A program made the translations under genes and the position numbers. Shown piece by piece: positions 2,770-57,953 of a stretch of DNA of 64,000 nucleotides (positions are counted from its first letter, which is position 1; every line of letters starts with the position of its first letter). The notes under the pieces are model-generated. The model ran no database searches. It was given only the letters and a program-made list of their open reading frames with translations, and was not told the origin of the DNA. Location: the NCBI GenBank assembly GCA_964410185.1, contig CAYPFM010000002.1:70047-134046 (forward strand), given 5' to 3'. The stretch comes from an uncultured Candidatus Saccharibacteria bacterium. GTDB lineage: Bacteria > Patescibacteriota > Saccharimonadia > Saccharimonadales > JAUPVS01.

Positions 2770-5391
2770 ATGAAAAAAGTCTTAAAACGAGTGCTTGGGG
2801 ATCCACAAGTTAAAACCTTAAAACGCCTAACCAAGCGCGTCAAAATAATTAATGACCTGGCTCCCAAGTATAAGAAGATGACTGATGAGCAGCTGCAAAA
2901 ACAGTCAGCCATTCTCAAGGATCGTCTCAAAAAAGAAACCCTCGACCAGATTCTCCCAGATGCCTTTGCGATTGTTCGCGAAGCTGCCAGCCGCACCATC
3001 GGACAACGTCACTTTGATGTCCAGTTGATCGGTGGCATGGTGCTGCACGAAGGCAGTGTCGCCGAAATGAAGACAGGTGAAGGTAAGACATTGGTAGCAA
3101 CCGCGCCAGTTTACCTGAATGCCTTGACCGAAAAGGGTGTGCACGTGGTGACGGTGAACGATTACCTGGCGCAACTGCACGCCGGTTGGATGGGCCAGGT
3201 CTACGCCTTTTTGGGTCTGACTACCGCCGTTATTATTGCTGACGAGTCATACATTTACGATGCCTCATTCGTGAACAAAAACCACTTCGATAAGCGCATG
3301 CATCCGCTCAAGCCATGTTCACGCCAAGAAGCTTACGCCGCCGATGTTACCTACGGCACCAACAACGAATTTGGTTTTGATTACCTCCGCGACAACATGG
3401 TGCGCGAAGTCGATCAGCTGCGCCAACGACCGCTGCACTACGCCATCGTTGACGAAGTTGACTCTATCTTAATCGACGAAGCCCGCACCCCGCTGATTAT
3501 CTCGGCCCCTTCTACTACCAGCGCCAGCGCCTACCAACAGTTCACCAAGGTGGCTCGCCAACTTAAAAAAGAAGATCACTACGAAGTTGACGAAAAGCGT
3601 AAGTCGGTCATCCTGACCGATGATGGCGTCGACATGGTCGAGAAGGTGTTGGGTATCGATAACTTGTACGGCACCGACAATATCCGCACCATCTATCACC
3701 TCGAACAAGCCCTCCGCGCCCAGGCGCTATTCAAGCGCGACAAAGATTACGTTGTCACCAGTGATGGGGAAGTGGTGATTGTTGATGAGTTCACCGGCCG
3801 CTTGCTCAAGGGTCGTCGTTATAACGAAGGTTTGCACCAAGCCATCGAGGCTAAAGAAAGCGTCACCGTTCAAGAGGAGTCGATGACGCTGGCCACGATT
3901 TCCTTCCAGAACTACTTCCGCCTGTACGAAAAGCTGTCGGGTATGACCGGTACAGCCGAAACCGAGAGCGAAGAATTCTACCAGATTTACGAACTGCACG
4001 TCGTGCAGATTCCGCCAAACCGCAAACTGATTCGCCAAGACCGCCCAGACCGCATCTACAAGACCGAGGAAGGCAAGTTCAAGGCAATTATTAAAGAAGT
4101 TAAGATGTTACACCAAAAGGGTCAGCCAGTGCTGATTGGTACGGCCTCGATTCAAAAGAACGAGCGCCTTGGTGTACTGCTCAAAAAAGCCAGCATCCCA
4201 CACCAGGTTTTGAACGCCAAGAACAACGAGCGAGAAGCGAGCATTATCGCCAAAGCCGGCCAAAAGGGTGCCGTCACCCTGGCCACCAACATCGCCGGTC
4301 GTGGTACCGACATTATGTTAGATGACGAAACTAAAAAGCTTGGCGGTCTCTTCATCCTTGGCTCCGAGCGTCACGAATCCCGACGTATTGATAACCAGCT
4401 CCGCGGTCGTGCCGGTCGCCAGGGCGACCCCGGTATTACTCAGTTCTTTGTCAGTACCGAAGACGACCTGATGCGTGTCTTTGGTGGTGATCGCATTGCC
4501 AGCATGATGACTCGCATGAAAGTGCCCGATGACGTACCAATCGAGAACCGAGTTATTTCACGCAGTCTCGAAGCCGCCCAGAAGAAGGTCGAAGGCCACA
4601 ACTTCGACATTCGTAAAAATGTCGTCCAGTACGACGATGTCATGAACCGCCACCGTAAGGCTACCTACTCAATGCGCAAAGAGATTCTACACCGCGCCGA
4701 CATCGAAAAGCGCATTCGCATCTTTATCGAGGAAGAGGCCAAGGCTCTGGCCGCCTCGCCACTGGCTACCAGCGACGTCTATGAAACACTGATTACCGAA
4801 GCCTTTCCGTTTGACGATACCACCCTGGATCGCTTGTTTGACTCTGACGCCCAGCACTTCGAAAAAGCCCTGAACAAGGAAGCGATCGCTCTGTATGAAT
4901 CCCGCACCGCTGCCTTTGGCGCCACCAATATGCGCAAGGTTGAACGCGATGTCTATCTGCAAGTTCTCGACAATCTTTGGATGCAACACCTCGAGAACAT
5001 GGAGCACCTCCGCGAAGGCATCGGCTGGATTAGTGTTGGTCAGCGCGACCCACTGGTCGAATATCGTAAGCAAGGGCAGGCTATGTTTGAAGAGATGCAG
5101 GAAACCTTGCGCCACGAAGTCGTCCGTACCTTGCTGCACGCCGAACCGGTCGCTAGCGAGCTCGACGAGCCAATCGAAACCGATTTGACCCGCGCCGCTC
5201 GACGCTCCATCGATAATGCCGACAAGGTTATCGAAGTCGACGAGTTCACCGAAAAAGACTTTGCCACCACCAGCGAAGGCGCCCCAGCCATCCCTGTTAG
5301 CAATACCAAAAAAGTCGTCACCGCCGACCAACGTAAGAAAGCACACAAAGCGGAACGCAAGCGCAAGGCCAAAGCGAAGAGGAAGAAGTAG
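2770..5391 (+). CDS. secA: preprotein translocase ATPase SecA
   Basis: 873 aa. MKTGEGKTLVAT Walker A, DEVDSILIDEARTPLIIS, TNIAGRGTDI, Lys-rich C-terminus. Confidence 0.97.
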   Translation: MKKVLKRVLGDPQVKTLKRLTKRVKIINDLAPKYKKMTDEQLQKQSAILKDRLKKETLDQILPDAFAIVREAASRTIGQRHFDVQLIGGMVLHEGSVAEMKTGEGKTLVATAPVYLNALTEKGVHVVTVNDYLAQLHAGWMGQVYAFLGLTTAVIIADESYIYDASFVNKNHFDKRMHPLKPCSRQEAYAADVTYGTNNEFGFDYLRDNMVREVDQLRQRPLHYAIVDEVDSILIDEARTPLIISAPSTTSASAYQQFTKVARQLKKEDHYEVDEKRKSVILTDDGVDMVEKVLGIDNLYGTDNIRTIYHLEQALRAQALFKRDKDYVVTSDGEVVIVDEFTGRLLKGRRYNEGLHQAIEAKESVTVQEESMTLATISFQNYFRLYEKLSGMTGTAETESEEFYQIYELHVVQIPPNRKLIRQDRPDRIYKTEEGKFKAIIKEVKMLHQKGQPVLIGTASIQKNERLGVLLKKASIPHQVLNAKNNEREASIIAKAGQKGAVTLATNIAGRGTDIMLDDETKKLGGLFILGSERHESRRIDNQLRGRAGRQGDPGITQFFVSTEDDLMRVFGGDRIASMMTRMKVPDDVPIENRVISRSLEAAQKKVEGHNFDIRKNVVQYDDVMNRHRKATYSMRKEILHRADIEKRIRIFIEEEAKALAASPLATSDVYETLITEAFPFDDTTLDRLFDSDAQHFEKALNKEAIALYESRTAAFGATNMRKVERDVYLQVLDNLWMQHLENMEHLREGIGWISVGQRDPLVEYRKQGQAMFEEMQETLRHEVVRTLLHAEPVASELDEPIETDLTRAARRSIDNADKVIEVDEFTEKDFATTSEGAPAIPVSNTKKVVTADQRKKAHKAERKRKAKAKRKK

Positions 5392-47237: not shown

Positions 47238-49541
47238 CTACTTCTTCTTGGCAGCGGTTTTGCGCTTGGGGAACTTGCGTCCCTTGCCCTTGGCCGGCGC
47301 GGCGGCGAGGAGTTCTTTACACTCCTTCTCTGTTAGCTCGGCGGGTTCCTTGTCTTTTGGAATCTTGGCGTTCTTCTTGCCGTCGGTTATGTAAGGGCCG
47401 TACTGGCCGTTCAAAACGTCTATACCGCTGTCGAAGCGCTGGATGTACTTGTTGGCTTCTTTTTCGAGCTTTTCTTTGTAAGCAACCAGGGCTTCTTCGA
47501 GGGTAATGGTCAGCGGATCGGCGCCTTTAACAGAGACAAAAAGCTTGTCGACCTGGATGTAGGGGCCAAAACGGCCGATGTTGGCTTTGATCTCTTTGCC
47601 GTCTTCGGTCAGGCCGACGGTGCGCGGCAGTTTAAACATTTCTAGGGCCTGCTCCAGCGTGACTGTTTCCAGGGTGGTGTTGGCCGGCAGCGGCGCGAAG
47701 CGGGGTTTTTCTTCACTTTCGGTCTCGCCCATTTGCAGCATGGCGCCATAGCGGCCATAACGAGCGATGATGGGCTTACCGGACTTAGGGTCTGGGCCTA
47801 ATTCACGGGCCTGTGAGGCCTCTTGGCGGCTGACATCGGCTGCACCCTCGATGAGGGGGTGAAAGTCCTTGTAGAAGTCCTTGAGCATTTGCTGCCACTT
47901 CTCTTTGCCCTCGGCGATGTCATCGAACTCGGCTTCGACCTTGGCGGTAAAGTCGTAATCGAGGACGGTGCCAAAGTGTTTGGTCAAGAAGTCGGTGGTC
48001 ATGTCGGCAATGCCGGTCGGGACCAGCTTATTGCGGTCGGCCCCTGTTATCTCGGTGCGGGTGGCGCTAGTGATAGTGCCCTTCTCTAAGGTAATGGTCT
48101 CAACTTCTCTTTCGACGCCTTCGAGGTCCTTCTTTTCGATATAGCCGCGGCTCTGGATGGTGCTGATAGTCGGTGCATAGGTAGATGGCCGACCGATGCC
48201 CAGCTCTTCTAACTTCTTCACCAAAGCGGCTTCGCTGTAGCGGGCGGCTGATTTGCTGAAGGTTTGGGTGGCGGTCATGCTGTTGAGCGGTAGTTTTTGC
48301 CCCTGTTCCACGGCTGGCAGAATGGTGTCGTCCTTGCCTCCCCCGTAGACCTTAAGGAAGCCATCGAACTGGAGGACTTCACCCTTGGCGATGAAGGCCG
48401 GCTTGGTTGTGCTGGGTTGAATGGTGATTTCGCTCTTTTCCAGCTGGGCGGGCGCCATCTGGCTGGCCAGGGTGCGCCGCCAGATGAGGTCGTACAGCTT
48501 TTGCTGCTGCGCATCGTCACCGAGGTTCTGCCTGCTGAAATCAGTCGGTCGAATGGCTTCGTGTGCCTCCTGGGCACCGGCGGACTTGGTCTTGAAGGTG
48601 CGCAGTTGGTAGTAGTCTTTGCCGTATTGATGCTGAATGTAGTCGGCGGCATTGTTGAGAGCCAGCTGTGACAGGTTGGTGCTGTCGGTACGCATGTAGG
48701 TAATGTGCCCACTTTCGTATAGGCGCTGAGCTAGGGTCATGGTTTGACGAACGCTGTAGCCAAGCCGCAGGGCGGCCGCTTGCTGCAGTGTACTAGTGGT
48801 AAATGGTCCTGATGGGTTGCGGGTGCTGGGCTTGGCCGTCATGTCGGTAACGGTAAATTCGGCCGGCACGCAGTCTTCTAGGAACTTCTGGGCTTCTGCT
48901 TTGGTTGGCAACTTGGTGGCTAATTCGGCTTTCAGTTCCTGGCCTTCAACGTCAAACAAGGCCGCAATCTTATAGGTAACCTCGGCTTCGTGGGCGTTAA
49001 TTTCGCGCTCACGCTCGACGATTAGGCGGACAGCTACAGATTGGACGCGGCCGGCACTCAGGCCGGTTCTTACCTTTTTCCACAAGACGGGCGAAAGCTC
49101 ATAACCAACCAAACGGTCGAGGATGCGACGGGCTTGCTGGGCATCGACCAGATCCTGGTCGACGGTGCGTGGGTTTTCGATGGCGTGCAGGATGGCGGTC
49201 TTGGTGATTTCATGAAAGACAATTCGCTTAGTCGTCTTGGGATCTAGCTTCAGGGCACTGGCCAGATGCCAGGCAATCGCCTCCCCTTCGCGGTCTTCAT
49301 CAGATGCCAACCAGACGGTAGCATCCTTGGCGGCTTTGCGCAGCTCGGCGACGACCTTCTTTTTATCAGCGCTGACTTCGTAGGTAGGCTCGAAGTTATT
49401 GGCGATGTCTATATTAAGACCTTTTTTCGGCAAATCACGGATGTGGCCAAAACTACTTTTGACGGTGTAGTCTTTGCCTAAATATTTTTCGATCGTCTTG
49501 GCTTTCGCCGGACTCTCAACGATTACTAAGTTTTTAGCCAT
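47238..49541 (-). CDS. topA: DNA topoisomerase I (type IA)
   Basis: 767 aa. Toprim N-terminus (LVIVESPAKAKTI, DEDREGEAI), active-site region SGHITYMRTDS, Lys-rich tail. Confidence 0.96.
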   Translation of the reverse strand: MAKNLVIVESPAKAKTIEKYLGKDYTVKSSFGHIRDLPKKGLNIDIANNFEPTYEVSADKKKVVAELRKAAKDATVWLASDEDREGEAIAWHLASALKLDPKTTKRIVFHEITKTAILHAIENPRTVDQDLVDAQQARRILDRLVGYELSPVLWKKVRTGLSAGRVQSVAVRLIVEREREINAHEAEVTYKIAALFDVEGQELKAELATKLPTKAEAQKFLEDCVPAEFTVTDMTAKPSTRNPSGPFTTSTLQQAAALRLGYSVRQTMTLAQRLYESGHITYMRTDSTNLSQLALNNAADYIQHQYGKDYYQLRTFKTKSAGAQEAHEAIRPTDFSRQNLGDDAQQQKLYDLIWRRTLASQMAPAQLEKSEITIQPSTTKPAFIAKGEVLQFDGFLKVYGGGKDDTILPAVEQGQKLPLNSMTATQTFSKSAARYSEAALVKKLEELGIGRPSTYAPTISTIQSRGYIEKKDLEGVEREVETITLEKGTITSATRTEITGADRNKLVPTGIADMTTDFLTKHFGTVLDYDFTAKVEAEFDDIAEGKEKWQQMLKDFYKDFHPLIEGAADVSRQEASQARELGPDPKSGKPIIARYGRYGAMLQMGETESEEKPRFAPLPANTTLETVTLEQALEMFKLPRTVGLTEDGKEIKANIGRFGPYIQVDKLFVSVKGADPLTITLEEALVAYKEKLEKEANKYIQRFDSGIDVLNGQYGPYITDGKKNAKIPKDKEPAELTEKECKELLAAAPAKGKGRKFPKRKTAAKKK

Positions 49542-49584
49542 ATGCGTGATGTCTAGTATACCTTATTAGTGACAAGGCGTAATC

Positions 49585-50250
49585 CTACGGCAATTTTGGC
49601 GACAATGCAAATAAATTAAGAATTTGCTCAGCGTCCTGGACCAGCTGCGCACCTTGGTTGATTAAGTTATGTGTCCCAACGCTGTTGTTACTAAAGATAC
49701 TGCCCGGCACGGCCAAAACTTCCTTGCCCTGATCTAACGCAAACTGAGCGGTGTGCAGGCTGCCGCTTTTCTCGGCCGCCTCAGTAATAAGCACGGCGTG
49801 GCTGAGGCCGGCAATGATGCGGTTGCGGGCGATGAAGTGGTATTTGTGCGGCCTGAGTTGGCCAGGATATTCGCTGACCAGTGCCCCACCCTGTCGCACG
49901 ATAGTTTCCGCCAACCGGCGATGGGTGGCGGGATAGATACTTTCGATACCACCCGGCAATACGGCAATAGTCTTGCCCCCGGCGTCCAGGGTTGCTTGAT
50001 GGGCGACGCTGTCGACTCCTAAGGCCAGCCCGCTTACAATCGGAATACTGGCCCAAGCCACAGTGGCTGTCATCCGCGTTGTAACTTCTCTGCCATATGG
50101 GGTAACCGCCCGGCTCCCCACAATCGCCAGCGTCTTGTACGCCAGTATCTCAGTGTTACCAACGACGTACAGCTTATAGGCGGGTTGCGGCAGCTTTGTT
50201 AGTTGGTGTGGGTAATGTCGGTCACCCGGGATAAGTTCGTGTACCTCCAC
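49585..50250 (-). CDS. dprA: DNA-processing protein DprA (core Rossmann-like domain only)
   Basis: 221 aa, GTG start after AAGGAG. GLALGVDSVAHQATLDAGGKTIAVLPGG and SGSLHTAQFALDQGKEVLAVPG. Confidence 0.85.
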   Translation of the reverse strand: MEVHELIPGDRHYPHQLTKLPQPAYKLYVVGNTEILAYKTLAIVGSRAVTPYGREVTTRMTATVAWASIPIVSGLALGVDSVAHQATLDAGGKTIAVLPGGIESIYPATHRRLAETIVRQGGALVSEYPGQLRPHKYHFIARNRIIAGLSHAVLITEAAEKSGSLHTAQFALDQGKEVLAVPGSIFSNNSVGTHNLINQGAQLVQDAEQILNLFALSPKLP

Positions 50251-50529
50251 GCTCGGCTCCTTTCAGATTGGTGCCTCGCGGGTTTCTGTATATAGCTTAG
50301 CAACAGCTACGATTTTGGGAGCGCAAATTAACCGGTTTTTAATGATTCAGATTAATAAAGTTAATAATCCCACACCGTAGCATTCTTAAAAAACTTAATC
50401 TGAATTCTTACCTTTTGGTTAAATGGTGCTCCAAAATCCATAGCACACCAAAAGGCACTGTAAGAGCCGGCCAACAGAGGTCGAAAACATAATTTAAAGA
50501 AACTAAGTTGCACAAAAAGCAAAATAGTA

Positions 50530-50557
50530 TTGACAAACAACAGAAAGTTGCTAAAAT
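50530..50557 (+). promoter_or_regulatory. orphan promoter TTGACA-N16-(TGC)TAAAAT with no long ORF downstream
   Basis: -35 box at 50530-50535, -10 box at 50552-50557, extended TG at 50549-50550. Confidence 0.55.
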
Positions 50558-50824
50558 AGCAATCCGTAAGCGTAATACTTTACGTTTCGCACCTTTTACC
50601 CCCAATTCTAACAAATTGTTAGATTGTTCTCAGAGCGGCAGCCTAAGTTGTTACCCTCCACTTATCGCAGCACTCGGTGTCAAAACCGAACGCTCTAGAA
50701 CAAACTAATCCCTTTAACAGATCCCGGAACCAGGCTTGCCTGGTCGAGGTCCCCAATTCAAAGTGAGTATTCAAGTATTCTGCGACCTTCGGGTCCAGAG
50801 GCGCACATCTTTAAGGAGTTTTGG

Positions 50825-50902
50825 ATGCTGACGCTTCACTGGGGTGGGTTGAAGGGTGTAATTTGGGGAGAACCTGACATTCTTGGTTCTCCTTTGAAAT
50901 AG
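50825..50902 (+). CDS. candidate 25-aa sORF inside the orphan transcript
   Basis: AAGGAG at 50813-50818, a 6-nt spacer, ATG at 50825. MLTLHWGGLKGVIWGEPDILGSPLK*. The stop abuts the terminator. Confidence 0.25.
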   Translation: MLTLHWGGLKGVIWGEPDILGSPLK

Positions 50903-50941
50903 GCCTCCAGCGGTGCCCACCCCCTCTGGAGGTCTTTTTTT
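50901..50941 (+). terminator. rho-independent terminator
   Basis: AGGCCTCCAG-N15-CTGGAGGTCT (10 bp including one G-U pair) followed by TTTTTTT. Confidence 0.8.
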
Positions 50942-51578
50942 ATACAATAAAACTGCGGGTTTCGGTAGGTAGTTGCCCGCCGTAGATATATTCCACCAAA
51001 AGACTGTTCACCTCTTGTGCTAAGGCCGGGAGGTGTTTTTGTTCATCAGCCGTAAACTTGCCCAAGACGAAATCGGCGCTGTCGGCCTGGCCAGAAAAGT
51101 CATTGGCTATGCCGATGCGGACGCGGCCGGTGGCTGGGCTGCCGAGGGCAATGATCGATTTAACGCCGTTGTGTCCAGCGTGGCCGCCACCGGTACGGAG
51201 ACGGATCTGACCAAACGGGATGTCAATTTCGTCGTGCACGACCACGGTGTCGGCATCACTGACCTTGTAGAAGCGCTGTACGGCCTGTACAGCCTCGCCA
51301 CTGTTGTTCATGAAGGTAGAGGGCTTACAGAGGATAACGCGCGTCTGACCAAGGTTGTGAGTGCTCAGGTGGGCTTTTAAATCCTTCTTATTGGTCCAGG
51401 CTGGAAAGTCGTTTGTTTGGGCAAAGTAGTCCAAGCTGTAAAAACCAACGTTGTGGCGCGTTAATTCATACTCTTTGCCTGGGTTGCCAAGTCCAACGAT
51501 AAGGATGGTTTTGGTGAGTCCAACGCTGTAAAGAGGTGGTTCGATATTGCTGTTTTGCTCACGGACGAATAATCCCAT
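50940..51578 (-). CDS. pth: peptidyl-tRNA hydrolase
   Basis: 212 aa. LIVGLGNPGKEYELTRHNVGF, GHNGVKS. Has an N-terminal extension of about 20 aa relative to typical Pth. Confidence 0.92.
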   Translation of the reverse strand: MGLFVREQNSNIEPPLYSVGLTKTILIVGLGNPGKEYELTRHNVGFYSLDYFAQTNDFPAWTNKKDLKAHLSTHNLGQTRVILCKPSTFMNNSGEAVQAVQRFYKVSDADTVVVHDEIDIPFGQIRLRTGGGHAGHNGVKSIIALGSPATGRVRIGIANDFSGQADSADFVLGKFTADEQKHLPALAQEVNSLLVEYIYGGQLPTETRSFIV

Positions 51579-51593
51579 AGCGTCTAGTATCGG

Positions 51594-52052
51594 TTATTCT
51601 GGGCGATTCAACAAGTAATGCAGCGGGTTGGTGCCTTGCTCCAAAAGGGATACATATGCTTTTGTTCGATAGAGGGCTTCCACTGGGATATCAAAGGTTG
51701 GGTTGATGACATCAGTCTCGTTGGTTTCTTCAACGTTCAATGCGGTTCCTGCATCGATTCCCATATACTCGTCAATGCTAATCACGTCGTCTTCCTCAAT
51801 AGAGTAGCCATAGGTGAGCGCCACCCAATGACCAGTGTGAGCCGAGACGATTCGCAATACCACAAAGCCCTCACTGACGCCTTGCTCGCTAGCGGCTTGA
51901 CTCAACGCTTCCAAATCTTCCTCCAGGCTGTCGAGAGCTGGTGGCGTGAGGGCCTCGGAGAACTCGAGATCAGCTAGCTGGTCGAGTAAGTATTGAAGAA
52001 TAGTGTCGTTATTGACGGGTAGATATTTTACTTCGGAGATTTCGCCTGGCAT
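51594..52052 (-). CDS. acidic hypothetical protein
   Basis: 152 aa, very Asp/Glu-rich. No recognisable domain. Lies between der and pth. Confidence 0.45.
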   Translation of the reverse strand: MPGEISEVKYLPVNNDTILQYLLDQLADLEFSEALTPPALDSLEEDLEALSQAASEQGVSEGFVVLRIVSAHTGHWVALTYGYSIEEDDVISIDEYMGIDAGTALNVEETNETDVINPTFDIPVEALYRTKAYVSLLEQGTNPLHYLLNRPE

Positions 52053-57878: not shown

Positions 57879-57953
57879 GGTCTCTTCGTCTAACGGTTAG
57901 GACACCAGGTTCTCATCCTGGCAATACGGGTTCGATTCCCGTAGAGATCACCA
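57879..57953 (+). tRNA. tRNA-Glu (anticodon CUC), CCA encoded
   Basis: GGTCTCT-TC-GTCT..AGGAC-A-CCAGG-TTCTCAT-CCTGG-CAAT-ACGGG-TTCGATT-CCCGT-AGAGATC-A-CCA. The D arm resembles E. coli tRNA-Glu (TTCGTCTA...AGGACAC). Confidence 0.9.

Follow-up and report, generated by a model that had tools for sequence, protein, structure and literature searches.

The window analyzed here, a stretch of 64,000 nt on contig CAYPFM010000002.1 of an uncultured Candidatus Saccharibacteria bacterium, carries between dprA and pth what is very probably a real, new, and single-copy gene for a structured noncoding RNA (ncRNA) of Saccharibacteria (positions 50564–50941, + strand), with a length of ∼330–530 nt across the family. 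The + strand unit in this gap (50530–50941) comprises a promoter, a structured stretch of ∼380 nt, and a hairpin followed by seven T residues. In an initial annotation, it had been described as an orphan promoter-to-terminator unit for a structured RNA, a description now upheld, for an ncRNA of ∼380 nt, by conserved sequence, a conserved promoter, and covarying structure.

Conservation of the unit in Saccharibacteria

The closest relatives of the Pth protein encoded in the window (52–75% identity) belong to Saccharimonadales/Saccharibacteria genomes assembled from metagenomes. When the unit was used as the query for nhmmer, a single copy was matched in the window (50559–50942), and all 17 Saccharibacteria pth loci contained the unit, always downstream of pth and on the opposite strand; it was detected at none of 63 pth loci from outside the Saccharibacteria. 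Four further genomes, reached via DprA homologs (53–56% identity), each contained the RNA, divergent from dprA, which brings the related genomes reached through either protein to 21/21. Scanning metagenome contigs with the 17-nt tip of the terminator hairpin yielded at least 120 loci, 85 of which contain the RNA. The dprA gene lies upstream of, and divergent from, the RNA in 47/62 loci, and pth lies directly 3′ of it in 25 loci (the window and 24 others).

In its contents, the spot between the RNA terminator and pth varies among loci: 32 of them (e.g., L002, L008–L012, L015, L016, L084, and L087) have open reading frames (ORFs) there that are diverse, mutually unrelated, mostly small, and located on the strand of the RNA; in the window, pth abuts at 50942. 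Neither an integrase nor a repeat was seen in this spot, and a conserved gene downstream of the host RNA was ruled out, the ORFs there being unrelated.

Promoter and terminator

The near-consensus promoter annotated at 50530–50557 was found as described and is kept in all 68 homologs for which enough upstream sequence was available, with a spacer of 16–17 nt between the −35 and −10 elements in every one of them. The promoter of the window agrees with the consensus at 11/12 positions and is the sole strong promoter-like site within 49500–52000. The strong terminator annotated at 50901–50941 was recovered as well: a G+C-rich stem of 9–10 bp is followed by T7 in the window, and by a run of at least four T in 57/68 homologs. 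A consensus terminator scan had missed it because its loop is longer than the 8 nt to which that scan is limited. The flanking genes, placed on the − strand by the initial annotation, were confirmed there by Pfam; TopA and Der genes lie beyond the DprA/Pth pair in the window.

50530–50535 (+): −35 hexamer TTGACA; a −35 element is present in 68/68 homologs, exactly TTGACA in 61
50549–50557 (+): extended −10 element TGcTAAAAT (TG plus TAAAAT), after a 16-nt spacer; TG extension in 66/68 homologs
50564–50941 (+): predicted transcript of ∼380 nt; start placed 6–8 nt past the −10 element, end at the U-tract
50901–50941 (+): terminator hairpin, stem 50901–50909 with 50927–50935, then U7 (T7 at 50935–50941); ΔG −19.5 kcal/mol, z −3.9
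49585–50250 (−): DprA gene
50940–51578 (−): gene of Pth (peptidyl-tRNA hydrolase)

Hexamers at 16–18-nt spacing on one side, a G+C-rich hairpin with a U-tract on the other, and the retention of both in relatives characterize the unit as an independent σ70 transcription unit with an intrinsic terminator. Judged from these elements, the RNA gene is transcribed independently from the + strand, and its expression is probably strong.

Some observations concern the surroundings of the gene. At 50935–50942, the U-tract of the RNA terminator and the stop codon of the convergent pth share nucleotides, and the hairpin may also end the pth transcript, that is, act as a bidirectional terminator. The 280 bp between dprA and the RNA promoter (50251–50529) are A+T-rich (37% GC) and devoid of an ORF, with Rfam matches at noise level only; presumably, the divergent dprA promoter is located there. 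The DprA of the window comprises 221 aa, a short form it has in common with its closest relatives, whereas most homologs are ∼285 aa long and carry an extra C-terminal winged-helix domain (PF17782).

A covarying secondary structure

The + strand of the unit folds with −136.5 kcal/mol, compared with −105.6 ± 5.6 kcal/mol for dinucleotide shuffles (z −5.6); for the − strand, z was only −2.3. All hairpins listed in the initial annotation could be read directly from the window at their coordinates: TCTAAC/GTTAGA (50607–50623), AGAGC/GCTCT (inside 50624–50636 with 50691–50703), CCAGG-CTTG-CCTGG (50730–50743), GACC-TTCG-GGTC (50784–50795), and GGAGAACC/GGTTCTCC (50867–50892). An alignment (A2) of 71 non-redundant homologs (<97% identical; mean pairwise identity 62%; lengths 328–530 nt) yielded an RNAalifold consensus of 74 pairs in 13 helices, on which pair changes were counted:

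Cells with a standard pair: 90.1% observed, 80.9% in shuffles
Pairs changing on both sides: 44 observed, 32.7 in shuffles
Cells changing on both sides: 515 observed, 176 in shuffles
Covariation score: 0.300 observed, 0.143 in shuffles, and at most 0.098 with partners slid by 1–3 columns

None of 500 shuffles reached any of the observed values, and compensatory changes thus exceed both the shuffled and the slid controls, as is expected of a structured ncRNA. Conservation in relatives (21/21 genomes) and covariation, two of the checks proposed along with the initial annotation, are both in favor of the unit. A pairwise covariation scan for additional pseudoknots yielded phylogenetic noise only. 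The parts of the structure are the following:

50565–50589 (+): P1, 5′-terminal hairpin; helix 1, both-side changes in 5/6 pairs
50607–50623 (+): P2, hairpin UCUAAC/GUUAGA; helix 4, 97% of cells paired, little variation
50624–50703 (+): P3 domain with a 13-bp helix (50624–50636 with 50691–50703); helix 6, both-side changes in 8/10 pairs
50645–50663 (+): P4, hairpin AAGU-[UGUUACCCUCC]-ACUU with an invariant C-rich loop (50649–50659); helix 7
50719–50840 (+): variable central domain; helices 8–11 (50763–50839), both-side changes in 17/20 pairs
50867–50892 (+): dispensable hairpin GGAGAACC/GGUUCUCC; missing in ∼1/3 of homologs, variable in length
50901–50935 (+): terminator stem; helix 13, both-side changes in 8/12 pairs

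The P3 helix encloses P4 and a variable hairpin. The stem of P4 covaries (AUGU/ACAU, CGU/ACG, and GAGU/ACUC variants) and is well paired with limited variation. In the central domain, of which at least two structural subtypes occur among relatives, 50763–50766 pair with 50836–50839, 50778–50782 with 50795–50799, and 50800–50809 with 50824–50835; the loop of the last of these helices carries GGAG (inside AAGGAG, 50813–50818).

The loop of P2 accepts insertions of up to ∼150 nt in relatives. More generally, some homologs carry insertions of 80–300 nt at set positions in the periphery of the RNA, namely, in the P2 loop (L011, L142, and L112) and in the P3 domain (L006, L008, and L015). The distant homologs L011, L112, and L142 have a P2-loop insertion in common (GGATCCGCTAC...GCGGACCC); the large insertions may be nested structured modules.

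Absence of a conserved reading frame

The initial annotation had pointed out a small ORF embedded in the unit:

50825–50902 (+): 25-codon ORF (MLTLHWGGLKGVIWGEPDILGSPLK), with AAGGAG (50813–50818) 6 nt before its ATG; rejected as a gene

This ORF is present in the window but it is not conserved. An ATG ORF in its frame, covering the G-rich strand described below, was found in 41/71 homologs, with a length of at least 20 aa in 34/71, and another frame was nearly as good in 30/71. Starts, stops, and peptides are not kept in homologs outside the part dictated by an invariant block of the RNA, which rules out a gene for the 25-aa peptide. That the RNA is an mRNA, or a dual-function RNA, for this peptide is almost certainly wrong. 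The position of AAGGAG before the ATG and the retention of MLTLHWGGLKGV in the two closest relatives would be in line with it; however, most homologs lack the ORF or have it shifted, other frames do equally well, its C-terminal half is encoded by the hairpin that ∼1/3 of the homologs lack, and the apparent Shine–Dalgarno (SD) sequence AAGGAG is the loop of a covarying helix. By this pattern of conservation, the RNA is one that encodes no protein.

Absence from known RNA families

At gathering scores, Rfam 15 (4227 models) gave no match to the unit, neither in the window nor at 16 Saccharibacteria loci; the sole gathering-level match in the 64-kb window was a tRNA (57879–57950, +; 61.8 bits). 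A permissive search (E ≤ 10) of 50250–51000 returned nothing better than E = 2.4 on the RNA region, and at E ≤ 1 nothing relevant was found on 20 homolog loci. Matches to Yfr10, FtrA, snoU30, and MIR were dismissed for E values above 2 or for lying on the wrong strand. The covariance models of OLE, ROOL, GOLLD, raiA, and HEARO did not match either, ARAGORN detected neither a tRNA nor a transfer-messenger RNA (tmRNA) at the unit, and a literature search by topic, organism, and exact sequence retrieved no description of the RNA. With both the Rfam 15 search and the ARAGORN check for tmRNA empty, the earlier reading of the RNA as a candidate novel one holds; neither Rfam nor the searchable literature contains it. 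According to a 2022 transcriptome study of the cultured Saccharibacterium TM7x, this organism has no validated small RNAs (doi 10.1101/2022.03.25.485537), and the only TM7-specific motif in a survey of 224 motifs was the lysM-TM7 leader, which is unrelated to the RNA.

The universal bacterial RNAs were considered individually. Their hallmarks are the P4 core for RNase P RNA, a tRNA-like domain plus tag frame for tmRNA, the Ffh-binding motif in helix 8 for signal recognition particle (SRP) RNA, and a single long helix with a central bubble for 6S RNA. The sequence contains neither the P4 core of RNase P RNA nor the T-arm plus CCA of tmRNA nor the helix-8 motif of SRP RNA, in agreement with the initial annotation, and Rfam returned no match to these three RNAs or to 6S RNA. 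tmRNA was rejected for want of an ARAGORN or Rfam match and for the terminator hairpin in which the RNA ends; RNase P RNA, for want of a match in the region (E ≤ 10) and on the 20 homologs (E ≤ 1), with GAGGAAAGUCC and ACAGAA..GGCUUA both absent; SRP RNA and 6S RNA, for want of an Rfam match and for the multi-branched consensus fold. A T-box or riboswitch leader, too, had no Rfam match, and the convergent pth is the next gene in the window and 24 other loci. A gene containing a group I intron was rejected because RF00028 did not match, ARAGORN called no tRNA, and the unit has no exons, its own promoter being directly upstream and the terminator at its end.

Size, single copy, and a strong promoter are nevertheless akin to those of housekeeping RNAs. 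Complete genomes of Saccharibacteria are expected to contain canonical rnpB, ssrA, and ffs genes, too. As for introns, Patescibacteria do have divergent group I introns that escape RF00028 (PMC13011429). Given the missing core motifs, the lack of any relevant Rfam or ARAGORN match, and the absence of room for exons between promoter and terminator, it is extremely unlikely that the unit is a highly divergent version of a universal RNA (RNase P RNA, tmRNA, SRP RNA, or 6S RNA) or an intron-containing gene.

Invariant loops and junctions

The strictest conservation within the RNA is found in loops and junctions, outside the stems. Besides the P4 loop, where TACCCTC.AC is invariant across the 71 sequences, four elements stand out:

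50590–50603 (+): 5′ C-rich strand CACCUUUUACCCCC, 5′ half of a predicted long-range closing helix; nearly invariant
50701–50718 (+): single-stranded junction CAAACUAAUCCCUUUAAC, with the near-invariant block CCCUUUAA at 50710–50717
50841–50858 (+): G-rich strand GGGGUGGGUUGAAGGGUG, 3′ half of the predicted closing helix; invariant columns, including GGUGGGUUGAAGGG
50910–50926 (+): 17-nt terminator tip GCGGUGCCCACCCCCUC; exact in 21/21 genomes chosen independently of the tip

The tip is invariant while its own stem covaries; with regard to its conservation, only the 21 genome loci constitute an unbiased sample. It occurs once in the 64-kb window, even when three mismatches are allowed, and no variants with 1–3 mismatches were found in 1.2 Mb of fetched loci. 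A C-rich motif of the ACCC type recurs four times in the RNA, that is, in the 5′ strand, the P4 loop (UGUUACCCUCC), the junction (CCCUUUAA), and the tip (UGCCCACCC).

The P4 loop contains CCUCC, the core of an anti-SD sequence. Conceivably, then, the RNA could be a base-pairing small RNA (sRNA), the C-rich loops of which (above all CCCUCC in P4) would bind SD/G-rich sites of mRNAs and repress translation, as do RsaE/RoxS, FsrA, and RNAIII of Firmicutes. All four invariant C-rich motifs are unpaired or looped, and the RNA is made from an independent unit with strong promoter and terminator, both of which would suit such a role. However, the RNA is far larger, and its structure more conserved, than is usual for seed-type sRNAs, and invariant blocks of 15–17 nt exceed what seed pairing needs. 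As SD targeting also leaves the occurrence of the tip in phages (see below) and the need for GCGGUG unexplained, it is regarded as clearly unlikely.

In the RNAalifold consensus, the 5′ C-rich strand (50590–50603) pairs with 50843–50858 (segment GGGGTGGGTTGAAGGGTG), with 93–94% of cells paired (helices 2 and 3). The initial annotation had offered two G-rich partners for the 5′ strand: GGGGTGGGTTGAAGGGTG is thus the one retained in the consensus, whereas the other, AATTTGGGG, sits in the dispensable hairpin. The long-range helix between the C-rich 5′ and the G-rich 3′ strand probably closes the whole RNA; covariation cannot prove it because both strands are nearly invariant. The G-rich strand is also complementary to the terminator loop (CCCACCCC), with a duplex energy of −20.0 kcal/mol for the terminator tip compared with −21.4 kcal/mol for the 5′ strand. 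In addition, the tip contains GGUGC, the complement of GCACC in the 5′ strand.

Two nearly isoenergetic partners of one strand could form a switch. The unit would then be a cis-acting leader with a conditional terminator, in which the G-rich strand would bind either the 5′ strand or the terminator loop and thereby gate read-through, and the RNA is indeed followed by a same-strand ORF in 32 loci. This explanation deserves very little credence, as in 25 loci, including that of the window, the convergent pth comes next, which leaves no gene to regulate, the downstream ORFs of the other loci are mutually unrelated, and, against shuffles, the pairing energies show no specificity.

The terminator tip in phage genomes

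The exact 17-mer was also present in 53 viral contig stretches of IMG/VR (L201–L253), with one copy per stretch, e.g., L217:5305–5321(−), L247:8010–8026(−), and L218:8366–8382(−). Just one of the 53 (L245) contains the whole RNA. In 47/54 viral occurrences, a stem of six or more contiguous, perfect pairs encloses the 17-mer; the sequence of this stem differs from case to case, and within one related group of phages (L206, L210, L217, L219, L225, L233, L234, and L236) the stem covaries. About 10 low-GC metagenome loci show the same arrangement of the tip on an unrelated stem. Conversely, 26 high-GC metagenome matches to the 17-mer lack a hairpin and were discarded as chance hits in coding DNA.

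The tip copies mostly have the orientation of the upstream ORF (sense strand, 50/59), often lying 7–25 nt past its stop codon, and several copies are located at convergent gene ends. In phages, most copies sit between genes for structure or packaging, ahead of those for scaffold-like proteins or the large subunit of terminase; among the neighbors are large terminase subunits (L247 and L218), acidic scaffold-like proteins (three unrelated groups), and lysis-like genes. No integrase was present among the neighbors examined. The proteins encoded on either side of the phage hairpins are diverse and have no family in common, which ruled out a conserved partner protein at these sites. Neither was a complementary G-rich partner found, or enriched, in cis near these hairpins, and their association with promoters is weak in general. 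When the RNA was compared by blastn with GenBank phages and PLSDB plasmids, there was no match.

Sharing an exact sequence with phages, the 3′ end of the RNA gene could be a DNA-level attachment site (attB) for phages or genomic islands, as are tRNA and tmRNA genes, with the phage copies as attP. One copy of the 17-mer per viral contig stretch would be in accord with this, and so would the variable spot just 3′ of the RNA gene (pth directly in 25 loci, unrelated ORFs in 32). Attachment sites are expected to come with an integrase and direct repeats, and with an orientation independent of transcription, none of which was observed: the phage copies have no adjacent integrase and lie within structural and lysis modules, 85% of the copies are co-oriented with the upstream gene, no second, directly repeated copy flanks the variable regions, and the ORFs downstream of the host RNA are not island-like. 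Moreover, the phage stems do not resemble those of the hosts and covary within lineages, whereas recombinase sites conserve the arms and not the center. An attachment site is, for these reasons, highly improbable. A DNA-uptake sequence was ruled out as well, based on the single copy of the 17-mer in 64 kb with three mismatches allowed.

The predicted fold of the apex of the tip consists of G-C, C·U, G-C, and G-C pairs below a 9-nt loop (UGCCCACCC). The tip is quasi-palindromic (GGUG..CACC), which raises the question of whether it drives formation of dimers or multimers via kissing loops, with the phage hairpins joining in. Self-assembly of this kind has precedents in "ornate" RNAs, as ROOL, GOLLD, and OLE are reported to form homo-oligomers, and the large size, the conserved loops, and the association with phages would be compatible with it, as would the predicted energy of the loop–loop duplex (−12.3 kcal/mol, 4+4 bp). 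Its basis is, however, this energy prediction alone; two central C·C mismatches break the duplex, the predicted internal pairing of the apex would leave only 9 nt open, and Rfam yielded no match to ROOL, GOLLD, or OLE. Self-assembly is therefore considered quite improbable.

Stems, orientation, neighbors, and copy number of the 17-mer together point to a portable module at the RNA level, as opposed to an attachment site, a DNA-uptake sequence, or an ordinary terminator, which a trans-acting host factor may read. With an invariant apex on covarying stems in both host and phages, the tip is a candidate protein-binding hairpin module.

A few tip copies are found in other surroundings. Short units that combine a hairpin with the conserved tip and a U-tract with a −10-like element and a small hairpin on the 5′ side are present at L101:7400–7520(+), in L153 (−, around 3846–3935 of the reversed locus), and in L203, L215, and L235. 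They look like small RNAs of 60–100 nt that would have only the 3′ module in common with the large RNA; L101 additionally contains GGGCACC, which is complementary to the tip. At L222:9496–9569(−) and L223:7469–7485(−), the hairpin is located between sequences resembling the 3′ end (GGTTCGAGTCC...CTCCCCGA) and the 5′ start (GGGGAGTAGCTCAGTTGG) of a tRNA. ARAGORN called no tRNA at these flanks; the two may be intron-containing or split tRNA genes.

Possible function of the RNA

Tentatively, the RNA is proposed to combine a scaffold with a recognition module. It would be an abundant, trans-acting molecule that most likely serves either in sequestration or as a ribonucleoprotein scaffold, and its working surfaces would be the invariant unpaired elements, that is, the four ACCC-type C-rich motifs and the G-rich strand. 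By itself, the 17-nt tip would suffice as a recognition module, and its conserved partner in the cell would most likely be a protein; alternatively, the tip, including its phage copies, could dock onto the G-rich GGGGUGGG and the GCACC strands of the same RNA. Phages of Saccharibacteria would put one copy of the module on transcripts of structural and packaging genes, where it would either recruit the partner (for antitermination, stability, or translation) or act as a competitor of the host RNA. When the new ncRNA gene and this scaffold-and-recognition mechanism are taken as a single, blended claim, that claim is moderately probable. A bolder version, possible but doubtful, is that the RNA is a subunit of an unrecognized lineage-wide ribonucleoprotein (or a ribozyme) and the tip its address tag, captured by many unrelated phages of Saccharibacteria to plug their transcripts into, or to disarm, the machinery of the host.

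Several points weigh against the proposed reading of the RNA and its tip. The 5′ end of the RNA was placed from the promoter alone, and the homologs sampled are from soil and freshwater Saccharimonadales. Because the exact 17-mer served to retrieve the metagenome and viral sets, the invariance of the tip in these is given by construction. The closing helix and all proposed tertiary pairings involve invariant bases, which are beyond the reach of covariation; across the family, the G-rich strand does not clearly surpass shuffled G-strands in pairing energy, and the tertiary and alternative pairings are to be taken as hypothetical because of this. In phages, a U-tract follows only ∼1/5 of the copies, some copies are within possible coding sequence (L202, L211, and L227), and the role of the tip may differ from that in the host RNA. 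Finally, no host mRNA carrying the tip module was seen, which weakens the analogy to a sponge of the CsrB type.

Saccharibacteria (TM7), and the candidate phyla radiation of ultrasmall bacteria they belong to, have tiny genomes, and an RNA under such strict constraint is likely to be central to these organisms, given the exact blocks of 15–17 nt, the conserved consensus promoter, and its presence in every relative sampled. The RNA would extend the short list of large bacterial ncRNA classes. The shared 17-nt tip would provide a handle on the interplay between host and phage in an almost unstudied group of phages, and RNA and tip would be easily searchable markers both for Saccharibacteria and for the assignment of phages to them.

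Comparison with known systems

In overall appearance, the RNA is similar to OLE, ROOL, GOLLD, raiA, and HEARO, as all are hundreds of nucleotides long, have many covarying helices and conserved nucleotides in junctions and loops, and are restricted to certain lineages. ROOL and GOLLD are linked to phages. The RNA described here is chromosomal, present in single copy in Saccharibacteria, syntenic with dprA, and not borne by prophages; what phages carry is only the tip of its 3′ hairpin.

With CsrB/RsmZ, 6S RNA, tmRNA, and SRP RNA, it has in common that it is a stand-alone RNA with its own promoter and terminator, and that a short motif in loops or single strands is repeated (four times, ACCC type). 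In CsrB/RsmZ, however, the motif is GGA and not C-rich, no host mRNAs with the module were seen here, and none of these families was matched by the RNA. RsaE/RoxS, FsrA, and RNAIII resemble the RNA in having several unpaired C-rich motifs, one of which is identical to the anti-SD core, and RNAIII also contains a small ORF (∼26 codons). The RNA of Saccharibacteria differs from them by longer and stricter conservation, a complex architecture, an ORF that is not conserved, and the lack of an Rfam match.

As with tRNA and tmRNA genes that serve as attachment sites, an exact sequence from the 3′ end of the host gene recurs in phages, and a variable region comes after the gene; unlike at those sites, integrases are not among the neighbors, the sense strand is preferred, the stems differ, and flanking repeats are absent. 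Parallels to the tip are RNA hairpins read by a trans-acting factor, namely, the boxB hairpin of λ nut, the put sites of HK022, and the operator of MS2, where a fixed apex likewise sits on a covarying stem, on the sense strand within phage operons. The sequence of the tip is unrelated to theirs; what sets it apart from these phage elements is that the same tip also ends a chromosomal RNA of the host.

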